Assembly: GCF_001465295.1 (NCBI RefSeq)
Contig: NZ_CP011035.1
Coordinates: 725,206-757,205 of the forward strand
From: Pseudoalteromonas translucida KMM 520
Lineage (GTDB): Bacteria; Pseudomonadota; Gammaproteobacteria; Enterobacterales; Alteromonadaceae
Direction of reading: 5' to 3'
Length of the DNA: 32,000 nt
Part shown: in pieces, positions 3,468-32,000 of the stretch
Layout: each line of letters begins with the position of its first letter
Position numbering within the stretch: the first letter of the stretch is position 1
Made by a program: the position numbers and the translations under genes
The notes under the pieces: generated by a model
What the model was told of the DNA's origin: nothing
Database searches by the model: none
The model's input: the letters and a program-made list of their open reading frames with translations, nothing else

Positions 3468-3544
3468 AATAAGTCCTGTACAAAGTAAGGTTTTTTGAGG
3501 CGCTTAATATACAGTTTTTACCTTCTAAAGTGTAAGGAATTTTA

Positions 3545-3757: not shown

Positions 3758-3864
3758 CGCTTATTCAATCACTCTTATTAAATAACGGCTATTAAGCGTT
3801 ATTACTATTTAATTACTATTTAATTTCAAATACTAATAAATTAAGAGGTTATGGCTAACACATT

Positions 3865-4146: not shown

Positions 4147-4215
4147 TCTTTGTTTGGTTGGTTTGTGTATGCTTGGAGGCTATAATTGGCCAAATTATTT
4201 TTTAGAGTATAAATT

Positions 4216-4925: not shown

Positions 4926-5106
4926 TATTTTCACGCCCTAATCGTTTTATTTTTAACTGCATATAAAAACGCTTAGGGTGTGTTGCTCCTTTTTAAAGCA
5001 ACACGACTTCTCTCCTTTTAAAGTAAATCTCTGTTATAGTTATAAAATTAAGCAACCAAGCATTTCGCTATTATTTAACCCACTAATTCGAGGATATAAC
5101 CACTTA

Positions 5107-5568
5107 ATGAAATACTTAACACTTGCTTTATTAGCTATTGCTTTTACCAGCGCTCATGCAGTTGCAACCCCAAGTAATAAAAGCCGGTTTATTCCGCTTT
5201 TAAAAACAAAACTGGGTGCTTATGAAGTGGTGTCGGCTAATTCAGCGTTATGCGTTAATAGCCAATTGAGTTTTGTAAATCCAGATAATGAAGATGCCGG
5301 TTTTACTTTAGGTGAGCAAATTATTTTTGACTCATTACATAACGGAACACAAACGGTTAAAAAACCCGATTTTTGTTTTGTTACTAGCTCATTAAAATAC
5401 AAAAGCGATGGCATTGAAAACGGCTTAAGAATGAGCCGCTGCGAAAACCCAGCTAACGAAAAAACAATTAGCCAAAGCATTTATTTTTTAGCTAACGACA
5501 CACTTAAATATACGTTAAGTCAGCCAAGCGTTGCATGCACATTTAAAAAAGTACCCGACAGTCAATAA
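5107..5568 (+). CDS. Secreted hypothetical protein (Cys-containing, signal peptide)
   Basis: The internal ATG at 5107 gives MKYLTLALLAIAFTSAHA|VATP, a classical Sec signal peptide. The track's GTG start at 4978 adds 43 non-signal residues and is unlikely. Confidence 0.55.
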   Translation: MKYLTLALLAIAFTSAHAVATPSNKSRFIPLLKTKLGAYEVVSANSALCVNSQLSFVNPDNEDAGFTLGEQIIFDSLHNGTQTVKKPDFCFVTSSLKYKSDGIENGLRMSRCENPANEKTISQSIYFLANDTLKYTLSQPSVACTFKKVPDSQ

Positions 5569-5589
5569 CGCATAAGTAAGCTGTACTTA

Positions 5590-6846
5590 CTAACAATATA
5601 TTTTGGGTATATCACGCCAGCGCGTGGTGTACTGCGGGGATAAAAAATTCCTGTTCATATGCCAACCTTCATTTAATTTACTGCTTGCTAAACTAAGCAT
5701 TCCTTTACCGTAGCGTTTATTTATAGCATCAAGACAATTCATTAATACTGGATTGTCGGTGCGTTTATTAAATAAATCGTCTTGTTGAAACTCCTGCGCA
5801 ATAAGCTCTAAAGCACCCACACCACATTTATAAAAGCGAATACCCGGCTGATATATTTGCTCAAACACTTGCGATACCGCATTAGCCATTACGCAGGTGT
5901 CGTTAGTGGGGCTGGCAAATGTATACATATACGACTTTTTATAAAAAACGTTTTCGTGAGACGAACTCGCCGCAAAAATATAAAGTTGTTTGCAAAGCGA
6001 TTTTTGCTTTCTTAATTTACTTGCAACCACAGTAACGTGATTAATTAACGCAGTTTTAAGTGCCGTTGGCTCGTATATACGCTCGCCAAAGCTTCGGGTC
6101 GAAAATACCTCGCGCTTATCTTGGCGTACGTCGTCCCAATTTAAGCAAGGTATGCCATTAAGCTCATTTACAGTGCGCTCTACCACCACACTAAATGCAC
6201 GGCGCATACTGTTAGGGTTTTGCTGCGCTAATTGCCATGCAGTGTGTATGTTCATTACTTTTAATTTTTTGGCTAAACGTTTACCAATACCCCATATATC
6301 TTGGCAACTCATTCTTTGTAAAATAGCTTTACGGCTTGCTTCGCAGTTAATAACAGCAACGCCATTAAATCCGGATAACTTTTTAGCGGCATGGTTTGCC
6401 GCTTTTGCTAAAGTAGCCGTAGGGCCAAAGCCAACACCAACGGGGAGCTTAGTTTCGCGCCATACGGTGCGCCTAATAGTGTGCCCATATGCAAACCAGT
6501 CATTAATAACAGGGGTGTAACCGTTAAAGTGTAAAAATGACTCGTCGATACTGTATACGTGTTGCACGTCGCAAAAACGGCCAATAACGTTCATCATTTT
6601 GTCGCTTAAATCAGCATATAACTCATAATTACTAGAGCGAATTACTACGTTATTTTGCGCAAGTAACTGCTTAACTTTAAAGTAAGGGGCAAATTTAGGA
6701 ATGTTTAAACGCCGAGCAATGGGACACACCGCGCATATGCAACCGTCGTTATTGGTAAGCACTACCACAGGTTTTGAGCGAATAGCCGGGTCGAATACTT
6801 TTTCGGCACTGGCATAAAAGGCCACCGCGTCTACTAGGGCATACAT
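5590..6846 (-). CDS. umuC: Translesion DNA polymerase V catalytic subunit UmuC (Y-family)
   Basis: The N-terminus MYALVDAVAFYASAEKVFDP compares with E. coli UmuC MFALCDVNAFYASCETVF. The SIDESF catalytic motif is present, the length is 418 aa, and the gene lies immediately downstream of and overlapping umuD. Confidence 0.9.
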   Translation of the reverse strand: MYALVDAVAFYASAEKVFDPAIRSKPVVVLTNNDGCICAVCPIARRLNIPKFAPYFKVKQLLAQNNVVIRSSNYELYADLSDKMMNVIGRFCDVQHVYSIDESFLHFNGYTPVINDWFAYGHTIRRTVWRETKLPVGVGFGPTATLAKAANHAAKKLSGFNGVAVINCEASRKAILQRMSCQDIWGIGKRLAKKLKVMNIHTAWQLAQQNPNSMRRAFSVVVERTVNELNGIPCLNWDDVRQDKREVFSTRSFGERIYEPTALKTALINHVTVVASKLRKQKSLCKQLYIFAASSSHENVFYKKSYMYTFASPTNDTCVMANAVSQVFEQIYQPGIRFYKCGVGALELIAQEFQQDDLFNKRTDNPVLMNCLDAINKRYGKGMLSLASSKLNEGWHMNRNFLSPQYTTRWRDIPKIYC

Positions 6847-7247
6847 AGCAGTAACTCAGGGCTTTGGCGATGCAGACGAATTGAGCGTGTAACTACGCCC
6901 TCAAGCTGAAACTCATCGCAGGATGTTAGTTGTACTGGTTTATACAAAGGTGATGCCGAGAGCAGCCGGGCATTGGTTTTATCAAGTAGCTTACACACAA
7001 ATAAGCCATTTAAATTAGCAACTATAACGTCGCCATTTTTAGCCTGTTCAGCGCGGTCTACTATTAGCAAGTCGCCTTCAAAAATACCCACATCTTGCAT
7101 TGAACTGCCAGAGGCAACGCCAATAAAAGTGGCGTCGGGGTGCTTTATTAATAGCTCATCAAGCGACACACCAAGCTCGCTATATGGCGCAGCAGGCGAT
7201 TCAAACCCGCACACACCCGCTTCTATATAAATGGGAATAACAAACAT
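6834..7247 (-). CDS. umuD: UmuD (LexA-like self-cleaving S24 peptidase, Pol V accessory subunit)
   Basis: It has a CGFESPAAPY N-terminal arm, a cleavage-region/S24 fold (ASGSSM with the Ser nucleophile, and a downstream Lys in VCKLL), and a LexA box upstream. The first ATG is at 7247. The track start at 7256 is a TTG. Confidence 0.85.
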   Translation of the reverse strand: MFVIPIYIEAGVCGFESPAAPYSELGVSLDELLIKHPDATFIGVASGSSMQDVGIFEGDLLIVDRAEQAKNGDVIVANLNGLFVCKLLDKTNARLLSASPLYKPVQLTSCDEFQLEGVVTRSIRLHRQSPELLLCMP

Positions 7248-7268
7248 AAAGATCAACCAAAACGCATA

Positions 7269-7288
7269 TACTGTACAAGTATACAGTA
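7269..7288. promoter_or_regulatory. LexA (SOS) box of the umuDC operon
   Basis: TACTGTACAAGTATACAGTA matches CTGT-N8-ACAG and the gammaproteobacterial consensus TACTGTATATATATACAGTA. It is embedded in a longer palindrome (7258-7298). Confidence 0.85.
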
Positions 7289-7314
7289 TATGCGTTTTGT
7301 TTTACTTTTGCCAA
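7285..7314 (-). promoter_or_regulatory. Putative sigma70 promoter of umuDC
   Basis: On the minus strand, TTGGCA (7314-7309) is followed by 18 nt and then TATACT (7290-7285). The -10 element overlaps the LexA box. Confidence 0.5.
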
Positions 7315-7329
7315 GTAATGAATGAAAGA

Positions 7330-7749
7330 TCACTGCATGTTTTTGATCATTGTTTGTGCGGTATTTAAGAAGTCTTTGATTTGCGTCGAGTTTAAATTTT
7401 TACACATTTGCTCGTTAACTTGGCGCTCGGCACTTAGTAATTTGTTAAAAAGCGCAGTGCCAGAGGCAGTAAAAGAAACAATAAAACAGCGTTTATCGTG
7501 CTCACTGGCACATTTGTTGATTAAATTTAATGCTAAAAGCTCCTTAATTAAACGGGCAATTTGTGCTTTGTCGCGTTGAGTTTGGGTAACAATATCGTTA
7601 GCAGTACATTGCGGCGTTGCTGCAATAATATGCAAGCAACGCACATGCATAGCGTTTAAACCAAGGTCGTTTGCATTAATCGCATCACGCGTTGTTACGC
7701 GGTAGCTTTGCATTAGCATAAAGAGTGTATTAGGCAGAGATGATTTCAT
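7330..7749 (-). CDS. MarR-family transcriptional regulator
   Basis: Winged-helix core: LHIIAATPQCTANDIVTQTQRDKAQIARLIKELLALNLINKCASEHDKRCFIVSFTASG. The start is set at the internal ATG at 7749 (MKSSLP..., 139 aa). The track's 183-aa version would overlap the divergent gene and leave no promoter space. Confidence 0.78.
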   Translation of the reverse strand: MKSSLPNTLFMLMQSYRVTTRDAINANDLGLNAMHVRCLHIIAATPQCTANDIVTQTQRDKAQIARLIKELLALNLINKCASEHDKRCFIVSFTASGTALFNKLLSAERQVNEQMCKNLNSTQIKDFLNTAQTMIKNMQ

Positions 7750-7765
7750 AGTAGTTACCAAATAG

Positions 7766-7806
7766 TTGACAATATCAATTAAATTGCTATAGTTGATTTT
7801 ATCAAC
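7766..7806. promoter_or_regulatory. Two pseudo-palindromes in the divergent MarR/SIP promoter region (candidate MarR operators)
   Basis: TTGAcaataTCAA (7766-7778) and GTTGATtttATCAAC (7792-7806) lie between the divergent starts. Confidence 0.4.
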
Positions 7807-7869
7807 CAATGGGGCGTTGTGCAAATGTTGCTGCATGCAATTTAAACTTTTTGTAAAACGAGGTAATAC

Positions 7870-8613
7870 ATGAGTAGACAAATACGCAAAGCACAGGTGC
7901 TAAGTACGAAGCAAATTACACCGCACTTACAACGCATTGTGGTGGGTTCTGATGAATTTAAAGATCTTACGCCAAGTTACATAGGCCACTATGTAAAAGT
8001 GTTACTGCCCCATAACGGTGAACTCGATTTAAACATAAAAACGGCGCTTATGCGCTCCTATACTATTAACCATGTTAATGAGCAAACGGGGGCGCTCACG
8101 CTCGACTTTGTAATTAATATGCACCAAGGTCCTGCTACAAATTGGGCGCAAACAGCAAAAGTGGGAGACAGCTTAGCCATAGCTGGCCCGGGCCCTAAAA
8201 AGCTCGATAATTTTAGCCATTCGCACTACGTACTCCTTGGCGACTTAACCTCAGTTAATGCAGTGAAAGGCTATGCTCAGCAGTTACCGCATAGCGCGAA
8301 AATTGATATGTTTATTCATGCCCCTAGCGAGCAAGACATTATTAGTTTAGATACGCCGCGCACTGTAAATTGGCTAGTTACCAATAGCCCAGATGAAAGC
8401 ATGCTAACGGCATTAAACAATTTAAAAGTAGGCGCACAATCCCCAATTGTTTTTATGGCGCTAGAGGCAGGCTTAGTGCGCAAAGTAAAAACTAAACTTA
8501 ATGAGCTATACGCCATACCACGTACGCATATTGTGGCATCGGGTTATTGGAAAAAAGGATTAAACTCAGAGAGCTATAAACAGCAACGCCAACAAGCGGC
8601 ACAACCCGCTTAA
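7870..8613 (+). CDS. Siderophore-interacting protein / ferric-siderophore reductase family (FAD-binding)
   Basis: It has the RSYTI FAD-binding motif, then GPATNWAQTAKVGDSLAIAGPGPKK, and an LLGDLTSVNAV NAD(P)H-lobe motif. GAGG sits 6 nt upstream of the ATG. Confidence 0.75.
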   Translation: MSRQIRKAQVLSTKQITPHLQRIVVGSDEFKDLTPSYIGHYVKVLLPHNGELDLNIKTALMRSYTINHVNEQTGALTLDFVINMHQGPATNWAQTAKVGDSLAIAGPGPKKLDNFSHSHYVLLGDLTSVNAVKGYAQQLPHSAKIDMFIHAPSEQDIISLDTPRTVNWLVTNSPDESMLTALNNLKVGAQSPIVFMALEAGLVRKVKTKLNELYAIPRTHIVASGYWKKGLNSESYKQQRQQAAQPA

Positions 8614-8741
8614 ATATACTCAGGTTATTTAGCGTTTAGCACCTTTAGTATCTTGAATTACAGGTAACGCACACCCATCTCTAGTTTTTATGCTTGTGGT
8701 TATAGCACACCATAAGCATACCATTTATAGGAGCTGCTATT

Positions 8742-9731
8742 TTGTTATCTAATATTCCTTTTTCGTTATTAGAGCTTGCCCCGATGCCCAAAGGGGCAAC
8801 GGTATCCGAAACGCTACATAAAAGTACTAAATATGCTCAAAGAGCCGACGAGCTAGGTTTTAATCGCTTTTGGTTAGCAGAGCACCATAATATGCCAGGC
8901 ATTATATGTGCAGCTACCTCTATTTTAGTGGGCCATATAGCCAGTAAAACCGATCGTATACGTGTAGGCTCGGGGGGGATTATGCTGCCAAATCACTCGC
9001 CATTAGTTGTAGCCGAACAATTTGGTACATTAGAGAGCTTATACCCAGGGCGTATTGATTTAGGGCTTGGCCGTGCACCAGGAAGCGATCCTATTACGAG
9101 TAGAGCTTTAAATTCAGACATGAGCCGAGCAGAGCGCTTCCCTCAAGAAGTAACCGAACTGCAAACCTTATTAGGGCCGTATAATGGCACTCACCCAATA
9201 CGCGCTATACCCGGTGAGGACACCAATATACCAATTTGGTTATTAGGCTCAAGCTTGTTTAGTGCGCAACTGGCAGCGCAAAAAGGGTTACCGTATGTGT
9301 TTGCAGGGCACTTTGCTCCGCGCTTTTTGTACGATGCCATAGAGCTGTATAAGCGCGAATTTAAACCTTCAAAGGTGCTTGATAAGCCATACATAATGCT
9401 GGCATTACCGCTGGTGGCAGCCGATACCGACGAAGAAGCACAATACCTATCGACCACTTCGCAACAACGAGTACTTGCGCTAATGCGTGGCAGCGAATTA
9501 TGGCTACAACCACCTGTTGACTCTATGGATGGCCTATGGAGTGAGCAAGAACGCGTACAAGTGGAAAACTTTTTAAGTTTAAGTGTAATAGGTGGGCATG
9601 TAAGTATAAGACACAAGTTAGAAATGATAGTAAAAGAGCTGGGCGTTGATGAATTTATATTTACCAACGATTTATACGACAGCGAAAAACGCCATAGAGC
9701 TATCGAAATTTTAATGGAATTAAAACGTTAA
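8742..9731 (+). CDS. Luciferase-like (LLM class) flavin-dependent oxidoreductase, YhbW-like group
   Basis: The FSLLELAP..., FNRFWLAEHHNMPGI, IRVGSGGIMLPNHSPLVVAEQFGTLESLYPGRIDLGLGRAPG pattern is typical of group-1 LLM proteins. The start codon is TTG. Confidence 0.82.
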   Translation: MLSNIPFSLLELAPMPKGATVSETLHKSTKYAQRADELGFNRFWLAEHHNMPGIICAATSILVGHIASKTDRIRVGSGGIMLPNHSPLVVAEQFGTLESLYPGRIDLGLGRAPGSDPITSRALNSDMSRAERFPQEVTELQTLLGPYNGTHPIRAIPGEDTNIPIWLLGSSLFSAQLAAQKGLPYVFAGHFAPRFLYDAIELYKREFKPSKVLDKPYIMLALPLVAADTDEEAQYLSTTSQQRVLALMRGSELWLQPPVDSMDGLWSEQERVQVENFLSLSVIGGHVSIRHKLEMIVKELGVDEFIFTNDLYDSEKRHRAIEILMELKR

Positions 9732-9745
9732 GTTTCATTTAGTTA

Positions 9746-9770
9746 AGCAGGCGTACACCTTACGCCTGCT
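9746..9770 (+). terminator. Hairpin after the LLM gene (weak T-tract)
   Basis: AGCAGGCGTA-cacct-TACGCCTGCT, a 10-bp perfect stem, followed by ATATTAT. Confidence 0.5.
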
Positions 9771-10001
9771 ATATTATAAGCGAAATCTAAACTAGTTTTG
9801 CTTATAGGCAACATCAATCTGTATTTTGGGTACTCATCTAAGCCACTCCCAAATAACAGCAAATAAATTATCCTACCGCATTCGCTTTAAGCGATTAAAC
9901 TAATAGATTTAATCAAATTTTATAGTGATTAATTACCCACTATAATTGAAACCACAAAACGTTATAACCCTATAACGCTACTTTTTACAGGAAGGTGTAC
10001 C

Positions 10002-11024
10002 GTGAACTCGCTAAATAATGTAATCCCTAATTCAGTTAACAAAGCTGCGCAGCCAAAAATTGCGCTGATTGCTGAAGGTGGCGGACAGCGAGGTATATTT
10101 ACAGCCGGTGTACTTGATGCGTGGTTAGAGCAAGACTACGACCCATTTGATTTATTTATTGGTACTTCTGCGGGCTCGCAAAACTTAACTAGCTTTTTAG
10201 CAAGGCAAAAAGGCTATGCAAAGCGTTTGATCAGAGGGCTGTCGCGTAATAAAAACTTTTTTCAATTAGGCCGTGGTTTAATTGGTAAGCACATAATGGA
10301 TTTAGACTGGTACTTTGATAAAACCACTGAGGTAAATCGGAGTTTAGATTTTAAAACAGCCAAAAATAACTTAGGGGATCGTGAACTGCTTATTACAGCA
10401 ACAAACTCACGAGACCGTAAACCGTACTTTTTAGCGCCTACAGGCGAGAGCAAGCAATGGCGTGAGCTATTAAAAGCATCAAGTGCGTTACCATTTTTGT
10501 ATAAGCAAGGTGTAAAACTAACACCTTGGATGAACACTTTAGCAGCTAACGAAGCGGAGCTTGCCTTAGAGCAAGTAGAGCCAGCAGTAGCCGACTTTTA
10601 TTTAGATGGCGGCCTTGCAGCACCTTTACCTGTACGTGAAGCCTATAACCGAGGCGCACGTAAAATAGTGGTGATCCGCACGGTCGATATTAACTTTCAA
10701 GTACAATCGGCATGGGTAAACAAACTAAGATCATTTGTGTGCGCATCAGGCTATTGTCCCAAAACCATAGATTATTTGCTACAGCACGAACAAGCATACC
10801 AAGAAGAGTTGGAATTTATTGCAAACCCACCGGAAGATGTTGAAATTATACAAATTTTTGCAACCGAAAAACTGCATAGCAAATTACTTGGCAGTTCAGA
10901 TAGCGATTTACGCTTTGATCACAAACTTGGTTTACAGGCAGGGCGCGCATATTTAGCTGAGCAAAATCCGCAAATTTGGGAGCATAGCCATAATCATCAA
11001 GTATTGCAGTACTGTTATAACTAA
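10002..11024 (+). CDS. Patatin-like phospholipase
   Basis: It has the GGGQRG oxyanion loop, the GTSAG (GxSxG) nucleophile and the DGG catalytic Asp motif (YLDGGL). The start codon is GTG. Confidence 0.8.
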   Translation: MNSLNNVIPNSVNKAAQPKIALIAEGGGQRGIFTAGVLDAWLEQDYDPFDLFIGTSAGSQNLTSFLARQKGYAKRLIRGLSRNKNFFQLGRGLIGKHIMDLDWYFDKTTEVNRSLDFKTAKNNLGDRELLITATNSRDRKPYFLAPTGESKQWRELLKASSALPFLYKQGVKLTPWMNTLAANEAELALEQVEPAVADFYLDGGLAAPLPVREAYNRGARKIVVIRTVDINFQVQSAWVNKLRSFVCASGYCPKTIDYLLQHEQAYQEELEFIANPPEDVEIIQIFATEKLHSKLLGSSDSDLRFDHKLGLQAGRAYLAEQNPQIWEHSHNHQVLQYCYN

Positions 11025-11079
11025 ATAGAACTAAGGGGCTTATTTACTCAATTGCATTGAGATAATAAATAACCCCTTT

Positions 11080-11104
11080 GCTGGCGTATATACTGCACGC
11101 CAGC
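11080..11104. terminator. Hairpin between convergent patatin and Lrp genes
   Basis: GCTGGCGT-atatactgc-ACGCCAGC, followed by ATTTAATTTT. Confidence 0.55.
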
Positions 11105-11112
11105 ATTTAATT

Positions 11113-11544
11113 TTAAGTAGACGAAAGCAAAATACTGGTTTCGCTATTTAAAATACCGTTTATTTCTCTTACTTGCCTAAGCACCCCATCAAACTCACTT
11201 AAGTTAGCCGCTTGAATTTCGGCTACTAAATCCCACGCACCATTAGTAGTGTGCAATTTAGTTAGCTCAGGAATACCGCGCATCGTTTTTATAACTTGCG
11301 AGGTTGACTTACCTACCACTTCTACCATCATAATTGCTCTAACTGCTTCGGTTTCAATGTGCTGATGTACACGCACGGTAAAACCTAAAATTGCCCCTGA
11401 TGACAGTAATCTATCTAACCTATTTTGTACTGTGCCCCGCGACACGTTTAATGTAGTGGCTAAAGTTGAAATAGAAGCGCGGCCGTCCTTTCTAAGTTCG
11501 GCTATTAGTGCTTTGTCGAGGACGTCGTAAATATAGGGAGTCAT
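11113..11544 (-). CDS. Lrp/AsnC-family transcriptional regulator
   Basis: It has an N-terminal HTH (LDKALIAELRKDGRASISTLATTLNVSRGTVQNRLDRL) plus a C-terminal RAM/ACT-like domain. It is 143 aa and divergent from the ocd operon. Confidence 0.85.
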   Translation of the reverse strand: MTPYIYDVLDKALIAELRKDGRASISTLATTLNVSRGTVQNRLDRLLSSGAILGFTVRVHQHIETEAVRAIMMVEVVGKSTSQVIKTMRGIPELTKLHTTNGAWDLVAEIQAANLSEFDGVLRQVREINGILNSETSILLSST

Positions 11545-11712
11545 AGGGTACGCCTTAGGTGAATTTTGATCAAAATACTAAATTTAATCATTACTGCCTA
11601 GCAAAATGATAAAAAATAATGCTATTTGTATAACTAATTGCCATTTTAACTGGCGCACCAGAGCGATAAACTGCCTGTAAATAATTGCACACACTTACTT
11701 ATAGAGGTTTTA

Positions 11713-12783
11713 ATGACGCATTTTATAGCACAGCCAAAACAAGGCGTTCCTTTTGTTAGCGTACAAACAATGGCACAGCTTATAAATAAACTCGGCATAG
11801 AAAATGTTTTACAACAGCTAACAAAGCGACTAGAAACAGACTTTGCTCGTTGGCAGCAGTTTGATAAATCCCCGCGTTATGCAGCGCATTCACCAGAGGG
11901 CGTAATAGAGCTTATGCCAGTGAGCGACGGCGAACTATTTAGCTGTAAGTATGTAAACGGGCATCCTAAAAATACCTTTAGAGAGCTGCAAACCGTTGCT
12001 GCATTTGGTATTTTAGCTGATGTAGATAGTGGTTATCCGGTTATGATCAGCGAAATGTGCCTACTTACCGCACTCAGAACTGCAGCGACTTCAGCATTAG
12101 TCGCCAAATATTTAGCCCCTAAAAATGCAACCACACTAACGCTAATTGGTAACGGTGCGCAGTCTGAGTTTCAGGCGTTGGCATTTAAAAGTGTACTGGG
12201 TATTACTCATATTCGTTTATACGATATAGACCCAAGTGCGTCGCAAAAAGCATTCAATAACCTCACTGCCTATGGCTTAAACGTCACTATTTGTAACAGT
12301 GCAGCAGAGGCTGTAAAAGGTGCGCATATAATAACAACCTGCACTGCAGATAAAACGAATGCCACAATTTTAACCAGCGAGATGATCCCACAAGGCGTGC
12401 ATATAAATGCCATTGGTGGCGACTGCCCAGGTAAAACAGAATTAGATGCAAAGCTGCTGGAACGCGCCGCTGTATTTGTAGAGTACGAGCCACAAACACG
12501 TATTGAAGGTGAAATTCAACAAATGAGTGCAGATTTTGCTGTAACTGAATTTCATCAAGTTATTAATGGGCAAGCTTGCGGGCGTGAAAGCCAGCAACAA
12601 CTGACTATTTTTGATGGCGTGGGCTTTGCCAGCGAAGACTTTACGGCATTAGCGTTTATTCGCGATCAGCTCATTGCAACGGGGCAGTACAGCTTGCTTG
12701 ATTTAATTACCCAGCAAGCCGATCCGCGTAATTTGTTTTCGGTTTTAACCGCTCAACATACGCAGCAAGAGAGTGTGGCATAA
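11713..12783 (+). CDS. ocd: Ornithine cyclodeaminase / mu-crystallin family
   Basis: It has the Rossmann motif LIGNGAQSEFQ and the TLTALRTAATSAL segment typical of OCD/mu-crystallin proteins. Length is 356 aa and GAGG lies upstream. Confidence 0.82.
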   Translation: MTHFIAQPKQGVPFVSVQTMAQLINKLGIENVLQQLTKRLETDFARWQQFDKSPRYAAHSPEGVIELMPVSDGELFSCKYVNGHPKNTFRELQTVAAFGILADVDSGYPVMISEMCLLTALRTAATSALVAKYLAPKNATTLTLIGNGAQSEFQALAFKSVLGITHIRLYDIDPSASQKAFNNLTAYGLNVTICNSAAEAVKGAHIITTCTADKTNATILTSEMIPQGVHINAIGGDCPGKTELDAKLLERAAVFVEYEPQTRIEGEIQQMSADFAVTEFHQVINGQACGRESQQQLTIFDGVGFASEDFTALAFIRDQLIATGQYSLLDLITQQADPRNLFSVLTAQHTQQESVA

Positions 12784-15394: not shown

Positions 15395-16420
15395 ATGATC
15401 AACATTTACGCAGGTAAAACTGCTGCAAAAGTAATAAATGAGCAGGGGTTTAAACCTGAATTATTCAGCTCATTTTTAGGTGCCAGCGGCGGGCCAAAAT
15501 GGTTTACCTTGTTTGGTTTAGACAAGTATATATTTGGCGAGTTTTTTAAAAACCATAGACAACCGCTTAACTTAATTGGCTCATCGGCCGGTGCATTTCG
15601 CTCAGCGTGTTTTGCCCAAAACGATCCGGTTGCAGCAATTGAGCGCTTAGCAAAATCGTATTCGCAAACGCGCTATTCTAGTAATAAACCCACGCCAGCG
15701 GAAATAACATTAAAAGCCCGCGCACTGCTTGAAGTTGTTTTTGGCAATAACGGCGTGGCCGAAATTATAAATAACCCCGTATTTAAAGCACATTTTATAG
15801 TGGCAAAATCGAATGGATTTATAGCCAGCGAAAATAAATTATTACAGCTTATGGGTTTATCAAAAAGTTATATGCTTAATCGAGTAAATCGAAAGTACTT
15901 AAGTTCACAATATGAGCGTTTTATATTTGGCCCAGCAACAAGCGACTTATCAATTACCGACAGCTATAATTTTAAAACACAAAAAATAGCGCTTACCCAA
16001 AATAATTTAAAAGATGCATTACTTGCATCGGGTTCTATACCTTTAGTTATGCAAGGGATTAAAAATATTTCCGGTTCACCGCTTGGCATGTATCGCGATG
16101 GCGGAATTATTGACTACCACTTTGATTTAAAAATTAACAACCCAGGACTCATTTTATATCCACACTTTAATAGCGACCCAAAAGCAGGGTGGTTTGATAA
16201 AAATTTAAAACGTAAAGTGTCACCACTTAATTACGATAACGTGGTGATGATCACGCCATCAAAAGAATTTATAGCAGGCTTACCGTACGGAAAAATTCCA
16301 GATAGAAATGATTTTACCGATCTAGATGCAGACACACGCATTAAATATTGGAATACAGTATTTAGTGAAACAGAAAAGTTGGCAGAGGCGTTTGATGCGA
16401 GATTAGCCGAAATGTATTAG
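15395..16420 (+). CDS. Patatin-like phospholipase (divergent)
   Basis: It has the GSSAG (GxSxG) nucleophile and the DGGIIDY catalytic Asp. The Gly-rich loop is atypical (GASGGPKW). Confidence 0.62.
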   Translation: MINIYAGKTAAKVINEQGFKPELFSSFLGASGGPKWFTLFGLDKYIFGEFFKNHRQPLNLIGSSAGAFRSACFAQNDPVAAIERLAKSYSQTRYSSNKPTPAEITLKARALLEVVFGNNGVAEIINNPVFKAHFIVAKSNGFIASENKLLQLMGLSKSYMLNRVNRKYLSSQYERFIFGPATSDLSITDSYNFKTQKIALTQNNLKDALLASGSIPLVMQGIKNISGSPLGMYRDGGIIDYHFDLKINNPGLILYPHFNSDPKAGWFDKNLKRKVSPLNYDNVVMITPSKEFIAGLPYGKIPDRNDFTDLDADTRIKYWNTVFSETEKLAEAFDARLAEMY

Positions 16421-16439
16421 CGATAGGAAGCTATAAATA

Positions 16440-16467
16440 ACAACCCATAAATTACGTTATGTTAAAT
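16440..16467 (+). other. dif-like Xer recombination site (11+6+11 architecture)
   Basis: ACAACCCATAA-ATTACG-TTATGTTAAAT compared with E. coli dif GGTGCGCATAA-TGTATA-TTATGTTAAAT. The XerD arm matches 11/11 and the XerC arm 6/11, with the inner CATAA conserved. The site is intergenic. Confidence 0.55.
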
Positions 16468-16482
16468 TGAGTGGTTTAAAAG

Positions 16483-16516
16483 AAAGCGAGGATGATTATT
16501 CAAATCAGCTCGCTTT
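16483..16516. terminator. Weak bidirectional hairpin between convergent genes
   Basis: AAAGCGAG ... CTCGCTTT with an 18-nt loop and T-rich flanks on both strands. Confidence 0.35.
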
Positions 16517-16535: not shown

Positions 16536-17099
16536 TTAATTAAGCTCAGAGTCGACCCAAAACTTAGTACCTTTTAATACTGCTTGTAGTGCAAGGCCGC
16601 TTTCGGTCAAAGAATAAACAGTAACTTGGTCTGCTATTGCTTCGGCAACTAATGCACCGCCTTTTTCTTTATATTTAGCTGCTGCATCTGCGTTTCCGCC
16701 AAATGCCCAACCGTGTTCAATAAATCTGTTTAGTGCCGCTTGGTTATGAAAAACCATAACAACGTTAAAGTCTTTAACACCTAAACCTAGGCCTAAACCG
16801 GCTTCGCCCATATTCATGTAAGTAGATTTGCCCGTTAGGTTATTTTTAATAACACCATAACCACCACCAAAACTAGCTAAAACAACATTGACGTTGGCAT
16901 TATCAAAAACAGCATAACCTGCAGAATTAGCAATTTGCTTTTTAACATCTGGTTTTATAGCGTAAAGTTTACTTAATGTATTTGATTCCATGCTATGTAC
17001 TAATGCACGTTTTTCGCTTGGTGAAGCGCTGCCTGTTGTTGCACAACCAGTGAGTGCGAGTGTAAATACGACCATGCTTAGCAAAATAAATCTTTTCAT
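16536..17099 (-). CDS. Lipoprotein with SYLF/Ysc84-like (DUF500) lipid-binding domain
   Basis: It has the lipobox LTGC|AT. The Gly-rich repeats FGGGYGVIKN...GEAGLGLGLGVKDFNVVMVF...GWAFGGNADAAA resemble SYLF domains. Confidence 0.55.
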   Translation of the reverse strand: MKRFILLSMVVFTLALTGCATTGSASPSEKRALVHSMESNTLSKLYAIKPDVKKQIANSAGYAVFDNANVNVVLASFGGGYGVIKNNLTGKSTYMNMGEAGLGLGLGVKDFNVVMVFHNQAALNRFIEHGWAFGGNADAAAKYKEKGGALVAEAIADQVTVYSLTESGLALQAVLKGTKFWVDSELN

Positions 17100-18449: not shown

Positions 18450-19642
18450 TGGAATATTTAGTCATTACTTTTATTGGCAGTTTGTTTTTAATTTATTCAT
18501 TAACAATCCGACAATTAGAAAGAACCGAAATCACTGGCCCAATGTTTTTTGTGATTGGAGGAATAGCACTAGCTTGGTTTATACCAGAGGAAGTTGAACA
18601 ATTAAAAAATGGTGGGGCTTATATATTACCTTTAATTGAATTAACTTTAAGTTTGTTTTTATTTACCGACGCTACAAAAACAAAACTGAGCGTTTTAAAG
18701 CACAGTTTTCAGTACCCGAGTTTATTGTTATTTGTTGCCCTCCCCCTTACCTTGTTGTTAGGTATTGGTACTGCATTATTTTTATTTGCAGAGTTAACAC
18801 TTATACAAGCTGCATTATTAGCAATTATTTTAACACCAACCGATGCAGCGCTCAGTAAAGGATTATTAGAAAGTACACAAGTACCTGAAAATATTCGCGA
18901 AGGAATAAATACTGAAAGTGGTTTAAATGATGGTTTATGTGTACCTGTATTTTTAATTTTTTTGTTATTAGCTAATAACCCCGAGCTTGGGATCACCGCT
19001 TCACAAACTATGATTATTTTTACTCGAGAACTAGGTATAGCACTATTTATAGCAATTGCGAGTGTTGCGATATTTATACCTACTTTAAACTTTGCCATGC
19101 AACGTCATTATTTTGCACAAAAAACCAGTCCTTTTTTGCTGGTAGGTTTTGCAATGGCGATATTTTCTGTGACACAGTACTTCCATAGTAGTGGTTTTAT
19201 TGCAGTGTTTGTAGCTGGTTTATTGTTTGACCGGTTTTCTCCAGAGTCGATACGTTGTGAAATTGTTGAAGACTCAGAGCACATAGCCGATTTTGCAGCA
19301 TTATTAATTTGGTGTTTATTTGGTTTTGTAAGTGCCTATTTGGTTTTACCAAAACTAAATTTTGAAATAATAATTTATGCTTTACTTAGTGCAACTTTGA
19401 TTAGAATAATTCCGGTTATGTTGTCACTGCAATTTACTGCGCTGAATATAAAAGAGCGATTTACTTTTGCTTGGTTTGGACCAAGAGGTCTAGCATCGAT
19501 AGTATTTACGTTAATGGTAATTGATACTCAAATAGAAAATAAATATCAGATTGCGACAATTGCCATGACTACTATTTTATTTAGTGTATTTATTCATGGC
19601 ATAAGTACTAAGCCAATTGCAGATAGTTTTGCTAAAAAGTAA
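18449..19642 (+). CDS. Cation:proton antiporter (Na+/H+ exchanger family, CPA1-like)
   Basis: It has about 11 TM segments, a TPTDAA motif (ILTPTDAALS) and ESGLNDG, both typical of Na+/H+ exchangers. Its start overlaps the integrase stop (TAATG). Confidence 0.82.
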   Translation: MEYLVITFIGSLFLIYSLTIRQLERTEITGPMFFVIGGIALAWFIPEEVEQLKNGGAYILPLIELTLSLFLFTDATKTKLSVLKHSFQYPSLLLFVALPLTLLLGIGTALFLFAELTLIQAALLAIILTPTDAALSKGLLESTQVPENIREGINTESGLNDGLCVPVFLIFLLLANNPELGITASQTMIIFTRELGIALFIAIASVAIFIPTLNFAMQRHYFAQKTSPFLLVGFAMAIFSVTQYFHSSGFIAVFVAGLLFDRFSPESIRCEIVEDSEHIADFAALLIWCLFGFVSAYLVLPKLNFEIIIYALLSATLIRIIPVMLSLQFTALNIKERFTFAWFGPRGLASIVFTLMVIDTQIENKYQIATIAMTTILFSVFIHGISTKPIADSFAKK

Positions 19643-19691: not shown

Positions 19692-19709
19692 TAATCTGTC
19701 TAATAAAGT

Positions 19710-22700
19710 TTAATCGCTAAGTAGGTGTGCAAGTAACTCAATTGGATGTTTAGGTTTAAATTTTTCATAGCGTTTAACTTGGCTACGACAAGAAAACCCC
19801 GTTGATAATAGTTGCTCGGGTTTATTTTTATCTACAATAGGTTTCCAACTCATTTCGTATAGTGCGCGCGAGTTGTTTTGGTTTTGTGCTTCGTGACCAT
19901 AAGTACCCGCCATACCGCAACAACCAGTACTGGTTTTTTTTAATGTTAAGCCAATATCGGTAAAAATATTTTGCCAAACACTCGCAGCTTTTGGTAATGC
20001 GGTAGTTTCGGTACAGTGGCTTAATAAAGTAAATTCAGTATTAGTATTTTGTTTAGCTTTTAATTGCGTAAACGATTGAGTTTGCAACCACTCGTGGGCA
20101 AGTTGCACATGAAAGTCACCTCGGTTATTTTCTAAAATTGTATTGTACTCATCGCGGTAACACATAACTAATGAAGCATCTAAACCAACCATTGGTGCAT
20201 TAATGTCGTTAAGTTTATTTAAAAACTCCGCGGCGTTTTTTGCTGTTACTTTAAACTCATGCAAAAAACCTTTTACATGCTGCGGTTTTCCATTGGGTTT
20301 AAAAGGCAATAGCATTGGCTTTTTGCCAAGCTGAGTAATAAGCGTAATAAAACTCTCTACTAATTCTGCTTCATAAAAACTAGTGAATGGGTCTTGTACT
20401 ATTAATACATATTCGTTTTGTTGCTCAGCACTGAGTTTATTTAGTAATTCAAAATTAAAAGTGTGAGTTTTGTTTACCCGATTAGTTAGTGCGGGAATAC
20501 TTAATTGTGGTGTATTTACATAACCCACGGTTTTTTTAATAATGTTACTAACTAGGTTTGTACTTACTATAGGATTAATAATACGTGCAAATTTAGCCAT
20601 TAATGGCGCACTAACTTCTATATTGCCAACTAGGTAATCTTTAAGAGGACGTGCGTAGTAACTATGATAATAATTTAAAAAACGCGAACGAAAAGTAGGT
20701 ACATCTACTTTAATTGGGCAAGCAGTAGTACATGCTTTACAGGCTAAACATTCGTCCATTGAAGCTTTAACCTCGTGAGAAAAGTCGTAAACGCCTTTGT
20801 TTTTTTCACGACTATGAACAAAACGTTCCCACCAGGTAATTACTTCGCCTTTATTCAGTTGCTTTTCGACCTCAAGTAAATCTATATCTTTTGCTTCTTG
20901 TAGGCGCAACCATTCACGCATTAAACTTGCGCGACCTTTAGGTGAATGTCGGCGATCACCGGTTACTTTATACGACGGACACATTGGTGAGTTTTCATCG
21001 TAGTTAAAGCATATACCGTTACCGTTACAGGTCATGGCATTATTAAAACTTGTTTTTACATCAATAGATATTTGTTTATCGAACCATGATCGTTTTTGTC
21101 CATCAACACTAACTAGTGAGTCTTCACTATCGATAGGTGTGCATATTTTACCTGGGTTTATTCGGTTGTTTGGATCAAACGCAGTTTTTATTTTACGTAA
21201 CTGAGTAAATAAATGTTCGCCAAAAAAAGCTGGGCCATATTCGCTACGATACCCTTTACCGTGTTCGCCCCACATTAAACCACCGTATTTAGCGGTGAGT
21301 TTGACCACTTCATCTGAAATAACACGCAATAGTTTTTCTTGTTCTGGATCGCACATATCGAGCGCGGGCCTAACATGTAAAACTCCAGCGTCAACATGGC
21401 CGAACATTCCATATTGTAAATTATGGCTGTCGAGTAATGCTCTAAACTCTACTATATAATCAGCTAAGTTTTCAGGTGGTACAGCGGTGTCTTCTGCAAA
21501 AGCGAGTGGTTTTTGGCTGCCTTTTACATTACCTAAAAGCCCGACTGATTTTTTACGCATGGCATAAATTTTTAAAATATCACTTTTATTACTGGTTAGC
21601 TGATAACCAATAACACCATTAGTTTGCTGTGCCACGCACTGATCTAATAGGTTGCACAAAGTGTCTACTTTGTCTTTTATATCCTCTGGCGATACAGCAT
21701 TAAACTCAACCATGTTGAGCCCTTGCATATCTTTATTAGGAATGTCGGTTATTAAGTCCGATACTGAATGCCAAATAATATCTTGGCGTGCTAAGTTTAA
21801 AACTTTGCTATCGACGGTTTCAACCGAAGTTGCTCGCGCAGCTACCAAAAATGGTGAATGACGTAGTGCCGAATCAAAACTATCATACTTAATATTAATC
21901 AGGGTTTTAAATTCAGCAATGGGGGTTAGCTTTAATTTAGCCTCGGTAACTATACCTAATGACCCTTCAGAACCGGTAATTAAACGGCTCATATCAAAAG
22001 TGTGTAAGTCATCACTTAGCACATGCTCTAGGTCATACCCGGTTAAAAAGCGGTTTAATCTAGGAAATTTAGCTAATACAGCTTCGCGCTCATTTAGTGC
22101 AATATCTAAAACGGTTTTATATAAATGACCAACAAATGTTTCTTGCTCTGCGATTACTTTTGCTTTTTCTGTATCAATAGCTGCAGTACACATAGGTGTA
22201 CCATCGACCAAATAAGTTGTTAGCCCTAAAACATGGTCACTCGTTTTACCGTAAACTAGCGAGCCTTGACCCGATGCATCAGTGCTGATCATACCGCCAA
22301 TGGTTGCTCTATTACTGGTAGATAAGTCGGGAGAAAAGAAAAAACCATACGGTTTTAAAAAGTCATTAAGCTGATCTTTTATTACCCCAGTTTGTACACG
22401 TACCCAGCCTTCTTGCGTGTTTATTTCGAGTATTTCACGCATGTATCGTGATAAATCGACAATAATGCCTGGGGTTAATGATTGCCCGTTAGTCCCAGTG
22501 CCGCCGCCGCGCGGACCAAATGTTAACGATAAAAAGGGGTCGCGAGATGCTGTTTGCAACGCAAGTTGAATATCTTTTTCGGTTTTAGGAAAAATAACAC
22601 CTTGCGGTAGCTCTTGGTAAATACTGTTATCGGTTGAAGCTGTTATGCGGGTTGCATAACTTGCGTCAGTGTCTCCAGTAAACCCTTGATTTTTAATGGT

Positions 22701-29210: not shown

Positions 29211-29227
29211 AAGTAAGATGTGTTCTT
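29211..29227 (+). other. Ter-like motif copy c, abutting the tus ribosome-binding site
   Basis: The plus strand reads AAGTAAGATGTGTTCTT, followed by tGGAGGttgcATG (the tus start). The position is analogous to TerB upstream of E. coli tus. Confidence 0.45.
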
Positions 29228-29237
29228 TGGAGGTTGC

Positions 29238-30113
29238 ATGGTAACTAAAGTACAAATAAGAAGTCAGTTTGATTTAATGAGCGAACTAACATTAAGGCTA
29301 ATAGAAGAGCTTAACCTGTGTGAATATACAAAAGCCGAATATTATCAACTTCCCGATATAAGCACAGTTGATGAAAATAAAGTAGCCGAATCGATTAAGG
29401 TTACTAAAATATCAGGCGAACTAGCACATAAAGCTATATTAAATTCCTTTACTGATATTTATAAAAAACAAGGGCTAAGTAGCCGGGTTTTAAAGCGTCA
29501 CCCTGGCCTATTGGTTATAAAAAATGCTGACAAACAAGCATTAATTAATCGAATTGCTCAAGTAAATAAAGCAAAAGCAGCGTTTAAAGAGTGCATTTTA
29601 GCTATTGATAACAACGATGCTCGTTTTGAAGCGGTACATAATGCAGTACCCAACTTAATTACTTTGGCTGCTTATCGAAAAATTCATAGTGAACATGAAT
29701 CGCCTTTTTCAGTACGATTTACCTGGATGCACAAACATGCAACTAAAACACTGACCAAAAAAATGGCCCTCGAAATGTTACAAAAGTCAGCTAGTTATAG
29801 AAACCCCAGAATGATCGATCAGCAAAAATGGCAGGCGCTAGTAGCACAAGAGCAATTACGGGTAGCAAGTTTAGGTGAAAAAGAAAAACTTAGAATTAGG
29901 CGCCCTACTCGGGTTAGCCCTCAGGTAAATGTGCGTTATACCGCGCAAAACCGTTATCACGTAAGTGCGGCGCTACCTTTTATTTTAATAAACCCAGAAC
30001 CAGACGTAAAACTGGGGTTATTACCAAATTACGAAAAGCCATTAAGTCATCCACGAAAACGTGACTATGATTTTTTAGTAGATCGACTTTATTTAGAACA
30101 AGTAGAAAAGTGA
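29238..30113 (+). CDS. tus: DNA replication terminus site-binding protein (Tus homologue)
   Basis: By-eye alignment to E. coli Tus: [22 protein letters not shown] / [31 protein letters not shown] / [26 protein letters not shown] / LKIKRPVKVQPIARVWY; LPFILIN / TPLIALIN. The ATG at 29238 has a GGAGG 4 nt upstream. The track's GTG at 29220 is unlikely. Confidence 0.82.
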   Translation: [291 protein letters not shown]

Positions 30114-30172: not shown

Positions 30173-31402
30173 TTACTTATCTACTATTTCAACAAGTTTG
30201 TCTTCATCAATAAGCACAGCATTTTCTACAATACGCTTACCGCCTTGTATTTCAATACGTTTATTGTGTTTATTCAGAGTAAGTATTTCATCACAAAATT
30301 GATCTGATGGATGCATTTCGTAAGTGTAGTCAATAATATTACCGGTTTTATCGTCTTTAACATTGGTAATACTGTACTCAGAGATAGCCCCTTTTTCGAT
30401 CAAATCTTTCATTGTTGTGGTCATATCACGACGCAGCGCTTTTAATTTATTTTCGGTAATATTATCCGTTGAATAAATTGAGCCGTACTTTTCCATAATA
30501 GACAATAATCTAAAATGGTATGTTTTTCCCGGAGCTGCATAACGCCAAAGGTGATATAAGCGCAGCATCATCCAACGCGATAATCCGCGTTTTAATTCTT
30601 GGGCGCTGTTAAAGTAATATCCTTTGTATTCAAGGTTATCAATCATGTTATGTACAAATGCATTTAAACACGCAACACATTTAACATTACCGCCTTGCCC
30701 TTTTTTTCCACTAAAATGCAGTGACGATAAAAAGTTCATATTCGATTCGTAAAACGAATCATCAATGTTTGTATTTTTTGTATCTGTTGCTGAATATTTA
30801 AACGAAAGTTTTGAGCCTTGTAATGCTTCAAGTGATTCTTTAATTTGTGGATATGGCATAGATTGGCCAACGGTTTTCAGCTCTTGTGCTAATTCGTTCA
30901 TCGAAAAAACAACAGCATATTGAATACCGGACTTAAAATTTATTTTTACTATTTTGCCTTTAGAAGCTAAACGGATCAGCGCACGCTCTACTTTTTCTTC
31001 TCTATCTGACGGCCAAACCAAATATTCTACGTCTTCACCATCTTTGCGTGTGCTAACAACCGCCGGCGTTATTTTTAATTCGCCGTCGTACAAAATACCA
31101 TCTATTTTTTCAGATATTTTGCGTGTAATTATTGTTTTTTTAGGTGCTTCTTCTAATGGTAATTTTTTATGCCCCGAACGGACAAAGCGTCCCCATAAAT
31201 CATAATGGTTAAAAGTATTCGAATAAGCACGTAATCCATGAGCTGCATTTTCTATCGAAATCCGCACATCTTTATTATCTGTAAACAGTGCTAAGCTTTC
31301 ATTATCAATTGCACTTTCCACCCCGTGAATTTGGCCCCTTAGTGTATCGGGCAAGTTATCTACCGAGATGTTGACCTTTCGGCTCATTGTTGTTATTTCC
31401 AT
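30173..31402 (-). CDS. Plasmid-type replication initiator (Rep; possibly TrfA-like), family not resolved
   Basis: This large ORF (about 405-410 aa) is very AT-rich and lies directly adjacent to 19-bp iterons, with inverted iterons over its upstream region. The segment LSRWMMLRLYHLWRYAAPGKTYHFRLLSIMEKYGS loosely recalls the TrfA motif LAQWLHGYYSSHAKPFPVKVETLRELSGS. The start is ambiguous (ATG at 31402 or 31387; the track's start at 31429 is a GTG). Confidence 0.6.
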   Translation of the reverse strand: MEITTMSRKVNISVDNLPDTLRGQIHGVESAIDNESLALFTDNKDVRISIENAAHGLRAYSNTFNHYDLWGRFVRSGHKKLPLEEAPKKTIITRKISEKIDGILYDGELKITPAVVSTRKDGEDVEYLVWPSDREEKVERALIRLASKGKIVKINFKSGIQYAVVFSMNELAQELKTVGQSMPYPQIKESLEALQGSKLSFKYSATDTKNTNIDDSFYESNMNFLSSLHFSGKKGQGGNVKCVACLNAFVHNMIDNLEYKGYYFNSAQELKRGLSRWMMLRLYHLWRYAAPGKTYHFRLLSIMEKYGSIYSTDNITENKLKALRRDMTTTMKDLIEKGAISEYSITNVKDDKTGNIIDYTYEMHPSDQFCDEILTLNKHNKRIEIQGGKRIVENAVLIDEDKLVEIVDK

Positions 31403-31457
31403 TTTTATTGCGACAGCTAATAACAACACATAAAGACAAAAAAGTTAAATGTTTAAG

Positions 31458-31476
31458 TTAGTATAAAAGTGATCTG
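31458..31476 (+). repeat. Iteron 1
   Basis: TTAGTATAAAAGTGATCTG; consensus TTAGTAWAAARNTGATCTG. Confidence 0.75.
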
Positions 31477-31493
31477 AGCTAAAATAAAACCTT

Positions 31494-31512
31494 CGGATCA
31501 CTATTATACTAA
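31494..31512 (-). repeat. Iteron 2 (inverted)
   Basis: The minus strand reads TTAGTATAATAGTGATCCG. Confidence 0.7.
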
Positions 31513-31535
31513 GCGGATGCTAATTAACTTAATTT

Positions 31536-31554
31536 CAGATCATTATTTTACTAA
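31536..31554 (-). repeat. Iteron 3 (inverted)
   Basis: The minus strand reads TTAGTAAAATAATGATCTG. Confidence 0.7.
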
Positions 31555-31565
31555 CTAGGCGGTTA

Positions 31566-31584
31566 CAAATCTCATTTTTACTAA
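31566..31584 (-). repeat. Iteron 4 (inverted, degenerate, lacks GATC)
   Basis: The minus strand reads TTAGTAAAAATGAGATTTG. Confidence 0.45.
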
Positions 31585-31662
31585 CTCAGTGAGATTTTTG
31601 TCCATTACAAAGCTAAATTTTTAATATTTAACACGACAAATTAACTAAAAAACTAAAAGCCC

Positions 31663-31671
31663 TGTTGATAA
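31663..31671 (-). promoter_or_regulatory. DnaA-box-like 9-mer (one mismatch)
   Basis: TGTTGATAA equals TTATCAACA on the minus strand, versus the consensus TTATCCACA. It lies in the AT-rich spacer between the iteron groups. Confidence 0.3.
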
Positions 31672-31688
31672 GCATATATTGAGTTAGC

Positions 31689-31725
31689 ATAGATCTGATC
31701 TGTACCTACTACAGATCAGATCTAT
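31689..31725. repeat. Perfect 16-bp-arm palindrome carrying four GATC sites
   Basis: ATAGATCTGATCTGTA-cctac-TACAGATCAGATCTAT. The half-site AGATCTGATCT recurs at 31893-31903. Confidence 0.9.
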
Positions 31726-31779
31726 ACTAATTAAAAGCCTTCTTTTACTACAGAGTCGGTGTATAACTTTATAATTTAC

Positions 31780-31798
31780 TTAGTATAAAACTGATCTA
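31780..31798 (+). repeat. Iteron 5
   Basis: TTAGTATAAAACTGATCTA. Confidence 0.75.
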
Positions 31799-31862
31799 AC
31801 AGACCTTTTTTGTGCACAACTTAATGATTAACCTGTGTGTAACTATTGTTTTAATTTACAGC

Positions 31863-31881
31863 TTAGTAAAAAGCTGATCTG
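31863..31881 (+). repeat. Iteron 6
   Basis: TTAGTAAAAAGCTGATCTG. Confidence 0.75.
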
Positions 31882-31907
31882 CAAGTAGATAAAGATCTGA
31901 TCTTAAC

Positions 31908-31926
31908 CAAGTATAAAGTTGATCTG
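31908..31926 (+). repeat. Iteron 7
   Basis: CAAGTATAAAGTTGATCTG. Confidence 0.7.
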
Positions 31927-32000
31927 CTTATTTTATTATTATTCATATAAATCATGTGTTTATCACCTATATTTAAGCCTCTATCCTTTAATACCTTATA

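Follow-up and report, generated by a model that had tools for sequence, protein, structure and literature searches.

Where does a secondary chromosome that is copied almost entirely by a single replication fork keep its dimer-resolution site, and does a 28-bp sequence close to the origin of a Pseudoalteromonas chromid qualify as that site, given that one of its two recombinase arms departs from the E. coli pattern? The sequence lies within a 115-bp gap separating two convergent genes, which encode a patatin-like protein and a YSC84/SYLF lipoprotein, in the window, by which we mean the whole 32-kb stretch of DNA that was analysed (Table 1). On the forward strand, its letters read ACAACCCATAA-ATTACG-TTATGTTAAAT, so that the 11+6+11 dif architecture proposed by an earlier, sequence-only reading of this DNA is found in exactly that register. 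The comparative evidence set out below makes it very probable that the 28-mer represents dif2, at which dimers of the Pseudoalteromonas chromid are resolved.

Table 1. Features of the window discussed in the text, in window coordinates.
Feature	Position	Strand	Basis or remark
Predicted dif2 28-mer, ACAACCCATAA-ATTACG-TTATGTTAAAT	16440-16467	+	11+6+11 register
Predicted XerC-binding arm of dif2, ACAACCCATAA	16440..16450	+	Conservation; match to TAC125 dif1 and dif2
Central region ATTACG, 6 bp, predicted strand-exchange region	16451..16456	+	Conservation
Predicted XerD-binding arm, TTATGTTAAAT	16457..16467	+	Consensus match; conservation
Patatin-like gene	15395-16420	+	Left neighbour of the site
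YSC84/SYLF lipoprotein gene	16536-17099	-	Right neighbour of the site
Intrinsic terminator hairpin of the YSC84-like gene	16482..16516	-	14 nt from the XerD arm; not part of dif
Orphan Xer-like tyrosine recombinase, 403 aa	17238-18449	+	Pfam Phage_integrase; 770 bp from dif2, XerD side
Sole KOPS-like motif in the window, GGGGAGGG	18738..18745	-	2.3 kb right of dif2, pointing at the site
tus (context)	29220..30113	+	Pfam Ter, E = 1e-96
Chromid repA (context)	30173..31429	-	Annotation of the orthologous gene in relatives
Start of ori2 (context)	31430..32000	.	AT-rich, GATC-rich, adjoins repA

The same reading had compared the 28-mer with E. coli dif, and that comparison was correct. The two sites share the 11-6-11 architecture, the inner CATAA of their XerC arms, and an XerD arm that is identical at 11/11 positions and also fully matches the strongly conserved consensus TTATGTTAAAT; they differ in the outer six bases of the XerC arm (ACAACC in the window, GGTGCG in E. 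coli) and in the central region (ATTACG against TGTATA). The 11/11 match of the XerD arms agrees with the known E. coli dif sequence. Between the arms of the window site, the inner ATAA/TTAT palindrome is present. The XerD arm occurs as a single exact copy in the 32-kb window, and the combined pattern CATAA-N6-TTATGTTAAAT was found once in the window and in 0/100 dinucleotide-preserving shuffles; therefore, the earlier estimate that well below 0.01 such matches would be expected by chance was fair.

The position of the site within its replicon can be established from the genes around it. The presence of Tus, of a RepA-like gene and of an AT-rich, GATC-rich stretch, together with the chromid matches in PLSDB, identifies the window as the ori2-proximal part of a Pseudoalteromonas chromid. 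A megablast search against PLSDB returned only Pseudoalteromonas megaplasmids (chromids), the best match being HL-AS2 at 96-97% identity. The gene at the repA position has no Pfam match; the records of HL-AS1, THAF3 and A316 call it replication protein A, and the other records a hypothetical protein. The stretch next to it has a G+C content of 27.7% and contains 12 GATC within its 571 bp, compared with a window-wide density of 2.5 per kb, and its location adjoining repA matches the description of ori2 in Xie 2021 (PMC7858055). Paired GATCnGATC motifs are also present in this stretch. From the predicted dif2, the start of tus is 12.75 kb away, the end of repA 15 kb, and ori2 approximately 15 kb. 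Matches to the E. coli-type Ter sequence ATGTTGTAACTA occur in the window at chance level only, and Ter sites of this type were likewise not found by Xie 2021 (PMC7858055).

A dimer-resolution site at this place is already known by prediction, and no new kind of biology is involved. A replicon-wide search by Kono 2011 (PMC3025954) picked the dif2 position on chromosome II of P. haloplanktis TAC125, reporting the site as ACAGCCCATAAATTACGTTATGTTAAAT at 619751 (Additional file 2) and the dif1 site of chromosome I as ACAACCTATAATTTATATTATGTTAAAT. Xie 2021 (PMC7858055, Table S3b) placed TAC125 dif2 at 619752-619779 and ori2 at 634716-635328, and the resulting spacing of about 15 kb is common to TAC125 and the window. 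TAC125 dif2 occupies the same locus and agrees with the window site at 27/28 bases, with identical central regions and XerD arms, the one difference being at position 4 of the XerC arm (ACAGCCC... in TAC125, ACAACCC... in the window). According to Kono 2011 (PMC3025954), Carnoy and Roten 2009 predicted another site on TAC125 chromosome II, a replicon that was omitted from the skew analysis of Carnoy and Roten 2009. More broadly, Xie 2021 (PMC7858055) annotated dif2 in the Pseudoalteromonas chromids analysed, at 4-27 kb from ori2 in most of them, argued from this proximity that these replicons are replicated unidirectionally, and reported the lowest sequencing coverage near dif2. The sequence-only reading had expected a dimer-resolution site beside the origin of a unidirectionally replicating molecule, and this expectation agrees with both studies as well as with the conservation, skew, KOPS and IMEX data from relatives presented here. 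These data confirm that the window covers the interval between ori2 and the predicted dif2, a site that would mark the terminus in a secondary chromosome whose replication is almost unidirectional.

The feature of the site that had seemed anomalous is its XerC arm, which the sequence-only reading described as degenerate. This label is misleading. TAC125 dif1 has the sequence ACAACCTATAA-TTTATA-TTATGTTAAAT, and its XerC arm shares the outer ACAACC with the window site. The window arm matches the XerC arms of both TAC125 dif1 and TAC125 dif2 at 10/11 positions (Kono 2011 supplement), and both Pseudoalteromonas dif sites fit the pattern A-n-n-n-C-C-Y-ATAA. By this comparison, the XerC arm is the native arm of the genus, common to dif1 and dif2, a finding that we add to the earlier predictions and that removes the apparent anomaly. 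Since ACAACC is also the outer XerC arm of TAC125 dif1, neither the scar of an IMEX element nor another partner recombinase is needed to account for it. The XerD arms of the window site and of TAC125 dif1, a site from a close relative, are identical, and a single XerC/XerD pair is presumed to serve both. The central regions, in contrast, are different (TTTATA in dif1, ATTACG in the window), and this difference should prevent replicon fusion and make IMEX elements replicon-specific, as in V. cholerae.

XerC arms of the CCYATAA type are widespread. A pattern scan of genome contigs with CCYATAA-N6-TTATGTTAAAT gave, among the matches listed, mostly Bacteroidota and at least four Pseudoalteromonas loci; one Bacteroidota example among those matches is TTGTCCTATAA-TTAATA-TTATGTTAAAT. 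The Bacteroidota dif sites among them (L009-L128) have the exact XerD arm TTATGTTAAAT and an inner CCTATAA, with a consensus of approximately TTGTCCTATAA-TTWATA-TTATGTTAAAT. The XerD arm itself is found in Bacteroidota and in other phyla.

Across related loci, the site stands out from its surroundings. In 8/8 PLSDB chromids, it occupies the orthologous position downstream of the YSC84 gene, and a metagenome and genome scan seeded with the neighbouring recombinase recovered approximately 37 more Pseudoalteromonas loci that carry it. The reading had named absence of the 28-mer from close relatives as grounds for abandoning its call, and the site was present in all the relatives examined. An alignment of the intergenic region has 21/28 invariant columns within the site, and the 40 nt to its left cannot be aligned; dif2 is thus an island of conservation whose XerC-side flank is not alignable among strains. 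Only one related locus departs from the XerD arm, with G in place of A at position 10, and the central ATTACG is identical in 7/9 chromid loci (the window and the 8 from PLSDB) and in most metagenome loci. The XerC arm keeps its inner CC-Y-ATAA in the approximately 45 related loci, with variation in the outer four bases.

A second intact dif on the same replicon would also have spoken against the assignment. A BLAST search with a 32-mer hit one place in each of 12 Pseudoalteromonas chromids, with two hits in CuT4-3 that correspond to the attL and attR of a prophage, so that the only additional site is a prophage attL; this count holds for 12 related complete chromids at the sensitivity of BLAST, and for the window's own replicon it covers 32 kb.

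The loss of alignment on the XerC side has a clear cause in several relatives. Bsw20308, CuT4-3 and CF6-2 each carry, between the patatin gene and the site, an 8-9 kb filamentous prophage that encodes Zot, a replication protein and a DUF3693 protein and has no integrase. The far end of each prophage is marked by an XerC arm and ATTACG followed by a degenerate XerD arm (GTACGTAAYAT or GTATGTAGTTA), and the near end by the intact 28-mer. This attachment layout of IMEX elements was found in L003, L005 and L006, and likewise in L141, L145, L149, L158 and L167; the central regions of attL and attR covary, both being GTTATG in L145. In 12 of the approximately 45 loci, one of two phage-end sequences abuts the XerC arm, which there reads ATAG, ATAA or ATAT followed by CCCATAA, and at loci with other flanks, the window included, the arm begins with ACAAC or ACAGC. 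When the attB of CuT4-3 is reconstructed, the resulting ACAACCCATAA-ATTACG-TTATGTTAAAT is identical to the 28-mer of the window. In the window itself, neither phage genes nor another att-like site were found over 16 kb on the XerC side. In the comparison with related strains, which had been proposed as a search for an empty site, the window holds the empty site, prophages are present at the site in about one quarter of the related loci, and the XerC side is an integration hot spot.

This arrangement is that of the IMEX phages of V. cholerae, of the CTXphi and VGJphi types. Integrase-less filamentous phages there integrate by means of an XerC arm and a matching central region next to a degenerate XerD arm, and the junction on the XerD side then restores a functional dif (Val 2008 and Das 2013, as cited by Xie 2021, PMC7858055). 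The shared layout is indirect evidence that host Xer recombinases act on the Pseudoalteromonas site. V. cholerae also has a plasmid-derived secondary chromosome with its own dif, whose XerD arm is identical to that of the window; unlike the chromid, chromosome II is replicated bidirectionally and its dif2 lies opposite ori2 and not 15 kb from it, and the V. cholerae XerC arm is given as AnTGCGCATTA, against AnnnCCYATAA in Pseudoalteromonas. Xie 2021 (PMC7858055) reported no prophage at the dif2 of unidirectionally replicating chromids, and it is probable that the prophage predictions used in that study missed small inoviruses at this position. Our results thus add that the dif2 of unidirectional chromids is a frequent landing site of small integrase-less filamentous prophages. 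As to the identity of these phages, a search for known phages resembling the Bsw20308 prophage gave no match by megablast and, by blastn, only a 167-nt match to Shewanella phage Dolos.

Since the prophages of relatives integrate at dif2 and bring their own XerC arm (ATAG, ATAA or ATAT-CCCATAA), the suggestion that the window's 28-mer is a hybrid scar, left by an IMEX element that integrated at dif and gave the site a foreign XerC arm, has to be weighed at this point. No counterpart is found in relatives for 16401-16439, which comprises the final 20 nt of the patatin gene and the next 19 nt, and this indicates a deletion or rearrangement with its end point at the XerC arm. Over 16 kb to the left of the site, however, the window contains no phage genes, attL-like second site or phage-end sequence, and its arm is of the ACAAC type, as at flanks without phage, at the chromosomal attL of CuT4-3 and in TAC125 dif1. 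We therefore regard a scar as highly improbable in the window; moreover, even with an exchanged arm, the site would still be a functional dif2. The native arm shared with dif1 is the reading that we retain. A resemblance over 13 nt between the left flank of the window, GTATTAGCGATAG, and a phage end, GTAATAGCGATAG, was not supported by blastn-short and is attributed to chance.

Further variation is seen in the same interval. Homology between the window and HL-AS2 ends at 16400 and restarts at 16442, with 8.66 kb in HL-AS2 replacing 41 bp of the window, and the comparison of window positions 16401-16441 with positions 3347-12007 of the HL-AS2 locus (L001) marks this as a hypervariable interval. 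Measured from the patatin gene to the site, it spans 39 bp in the window, 106-176 bp in other loci, and up to 9.5 kb; its cargo in relatives consists of a glp/FBA/FBPase cluster, IS30, MCP plus kinase genes, or inoviruses. The window comes from a close relative of TAC125 and not from TAC125 itself, and the cargo present between the patatin gene and the site in TAC125 is absent from it.

Smaller features were also observed at the XerC arm of individual loci. In L155, L156 and L157, where 70 nt to the left of the site were inspected, heptamer repeats of the form (ACAACTG)n run straight into ACAACCCATAA, and in L148 tandem (GCTGATA)n heptamers abut the XerC arm; the heptamer repeat unit at the XerC arm resembles the outer part of the arm. 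HL-AS2 has an attL-like site, ACAGCCCATAA-ATTACG-GTACGTAACAT, at L001 11048-11075, 960 bp from its dif2 (12006-12033), with one hypothetical gene enclosed, and this 960-bp unit could be a mini-IMEX or a remnant. In HL-AS1, ATTACGTTATATTAATA is directly fused to the XerC arm (L002 11991-12008).

Replication polarity provides a line of evidence that comes from outside the site. GC skew stays positive through the left flank and approximately 4 kb past the site, and is then negative up to ori2, both in the window and in 8/8 PLSDB chromids; the cumulative maximum in the window is at 20,728, which is 4.3 kb from the site and not on it. Genes are mostly on the forward strand to the left of the site and on the reverse strand between 19.7 and 28 kb. 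In 9/9 chromids, the change in skew sign and the switch in gene strand (19700-20730 in the window) both lie approximately 3-4 kb to the right of dif2, which suggests that the short leftward arm from ori2 stops slightly before dif2. The distance of only 15 kb between dif2 and ori2 is explained if one fork copies almost the whole chromid. In addition to the single motif of the window, KOPS-like GGGNAGGG motifs over the related loci are on the forward strand in 9/10 cases to the left of the site and on the reverse strand in 55/55 cases to its right, with the caveat that four or five positions, counted in orthologous copies, make up most of the right-side total and the effective sample is therefore small. 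The polarity check suggested by the earlier reading thus places the skew change about 4 kb away and has the KOPS motifs converging on the site. This convergence, which is added here, argues for FtsK-dependent, chromosome-like resolution on a plasmid-derived replicon.

Xer sites of the cer and psi type, by comparison, require a conserved stretch of accessory DNA, approximately 180 bp long, beside the XerC arm. The 28-mer could in principle be such a plasmid-type site, FtsK-independent, dependent on accessory sequences or proteins and inherited from the plasmid ancestor of the chromid. The plasmid descent of the chromid (Xie 2021, PMC7858055) would be in keeping with this origin, as would the finding in PLSDB of a 23/26-base match to the site in approximately 370 Klebsiella plasmids, mostly conjugative, in which the matching sequences are presumably plasmid Xer multimer-resolution sites. 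We give this possibility next to no weight: the XerC-side flank is wholly unconserved, with 39 bp to 9.5 kb of differing cargo, the KOPS motifs converge on the site, and the XerD arm is of the perfect chromosomal type.

For a chromosomal dif2, a mechanism can be proposed that builds on the observed sequence, conservation, position, polarity signals and IMEX use in relatives; binding and catalysis by XerC and XerD, and the dependence on FtsK, would follow from analogy with the E. coli and V. cholerae model. XerC encoded on chromosome I would bind ACAACCCATAA, and XerD would bind TTATGTTAAAT. On a chromid dimer caught at the septum, FtsK would translocate along the KOPS motifs to the site and activate XerD for the first strand exchange, and XerC would then resolve the Holliday junction across the 6-bp central region to give monomers. 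The location of the site would suit a replicon in which the single main fork meets a very short opposite arm near dif2. The xerC, xerD and ftsK genes lie outside the 32-kb window, and their presence in the host is taken from the literature; Kono 2011 (PMC3025954) analysed only strains with XerCD orthologues, TAC125 among them.

The last question that the locus raises concerns the tyrosine recombinase encoded on the XerD side of the site, which the earlier reading considered as an alternative partner. Its catalytic motifs are complete (LRISEL, HWLRHT and the tyrosine in DQIY), and its family comprises 2039 matches at E < 1e-10, in Pseudoalteromonas, Psychrobium, Thalassotalea, Porticoccaceae and others. 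As a candidate for XerC or XerD itself the protein was rejected, since it scores 62 and 49 bits against these families, far below the cut-offs of 335 and 330. It might nevertheless act on the site wholly or in part, in the manner of XerH/difH or XerS/difSL, in which the recombinase gene adjoins its site, or by replacing XerC at dif2. Proximity is the main point in favour of such a role: in most Pseudoalteromonas loci, 73-800 bp separate the gene from dif2 (approximately 770 bp in the clade of the window, 90-200 bp in a clade of 72-78% identity, and 73 bp in P. piscicida, where the orientation is inverted); it lies 144 bp downstream of a canonical dif, AGTGCGCATAA-TCTATA-TTATGTTAAAT, in two Psychrobium-like contigs; and one Pseudomonas MAG has it approximately 650 bp from a dif-like site.

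This linkage, however, is not general across the family, and the arms of the window site are of the XerC/XerD type, the XerD arm being that of E. coli and the XerC arm resembling that of dif1, in contrast to the XerH and XerS systems. In P. rubra and P. fenneropenaei, the recombinase is 8.6 kb and 9.3 kb away from dif2, respectively, and lineages differ in how the site is oriented with respect to the gene. In other genera, most homologues lack a nearby dif: none was found near the recombinase in five other Psychrobium-like loci, none within 10 kb (or the shorter contig flank) of the Thalassotalea, Psychrobium and Porticoccaceae homologues or of those in 34 loci of a clade of 44% identity, and no motif with fewer than 3-4 mismatches to dif upstream of the homologues in that clade. 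In addition, IMEX elements insert on the XerC side only, and genes on the XerD side therefore stay neighbours of dif by simple synteny. This synteny, together with the XerC/XerD-type arms, makes a functional partnership between recombinase and dif2 unlikely. Accordingly, we consider it very doubtful that the recombinase acts on the site, and the proposal of another partner was not borne out. Slightly less improbable, and still not something we would expect, is a looser functional coupling to dif, as a third replicon-specific Xer component or as a controller of IMEX traffic, in which case adjacency would be functional instead of inherited gene order. XerC and XerD of the host remain the predicted partners of dif2. 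Coordinates of recombinase homologues include L134 9901-11209, L176 2352-3782 and L124 2890-4901.

Two minor observations concern the surroundings of the site. The terminator hairpin of the YSC84-like gene was found by RNA folding, and its loop is larger than a simple terminator scan allows. It folds with -13.1 kcal/mol (z = -4.9) and is followed by a U tract, and its stem has compensatory changes in relatives, with AAAGCGAG/CTCGCTTT against AAAGTGGG/CCCACTTT, and GCGAG/CTCGC against GTGGG/CCCAC between clades. Approximately 10 kb from dif2, at 5590-7256 on the reverse strand, the chromid also carries a umuD/umuC-like pair, consisting of a Y-family polymerase and a LexA-like peptidase.
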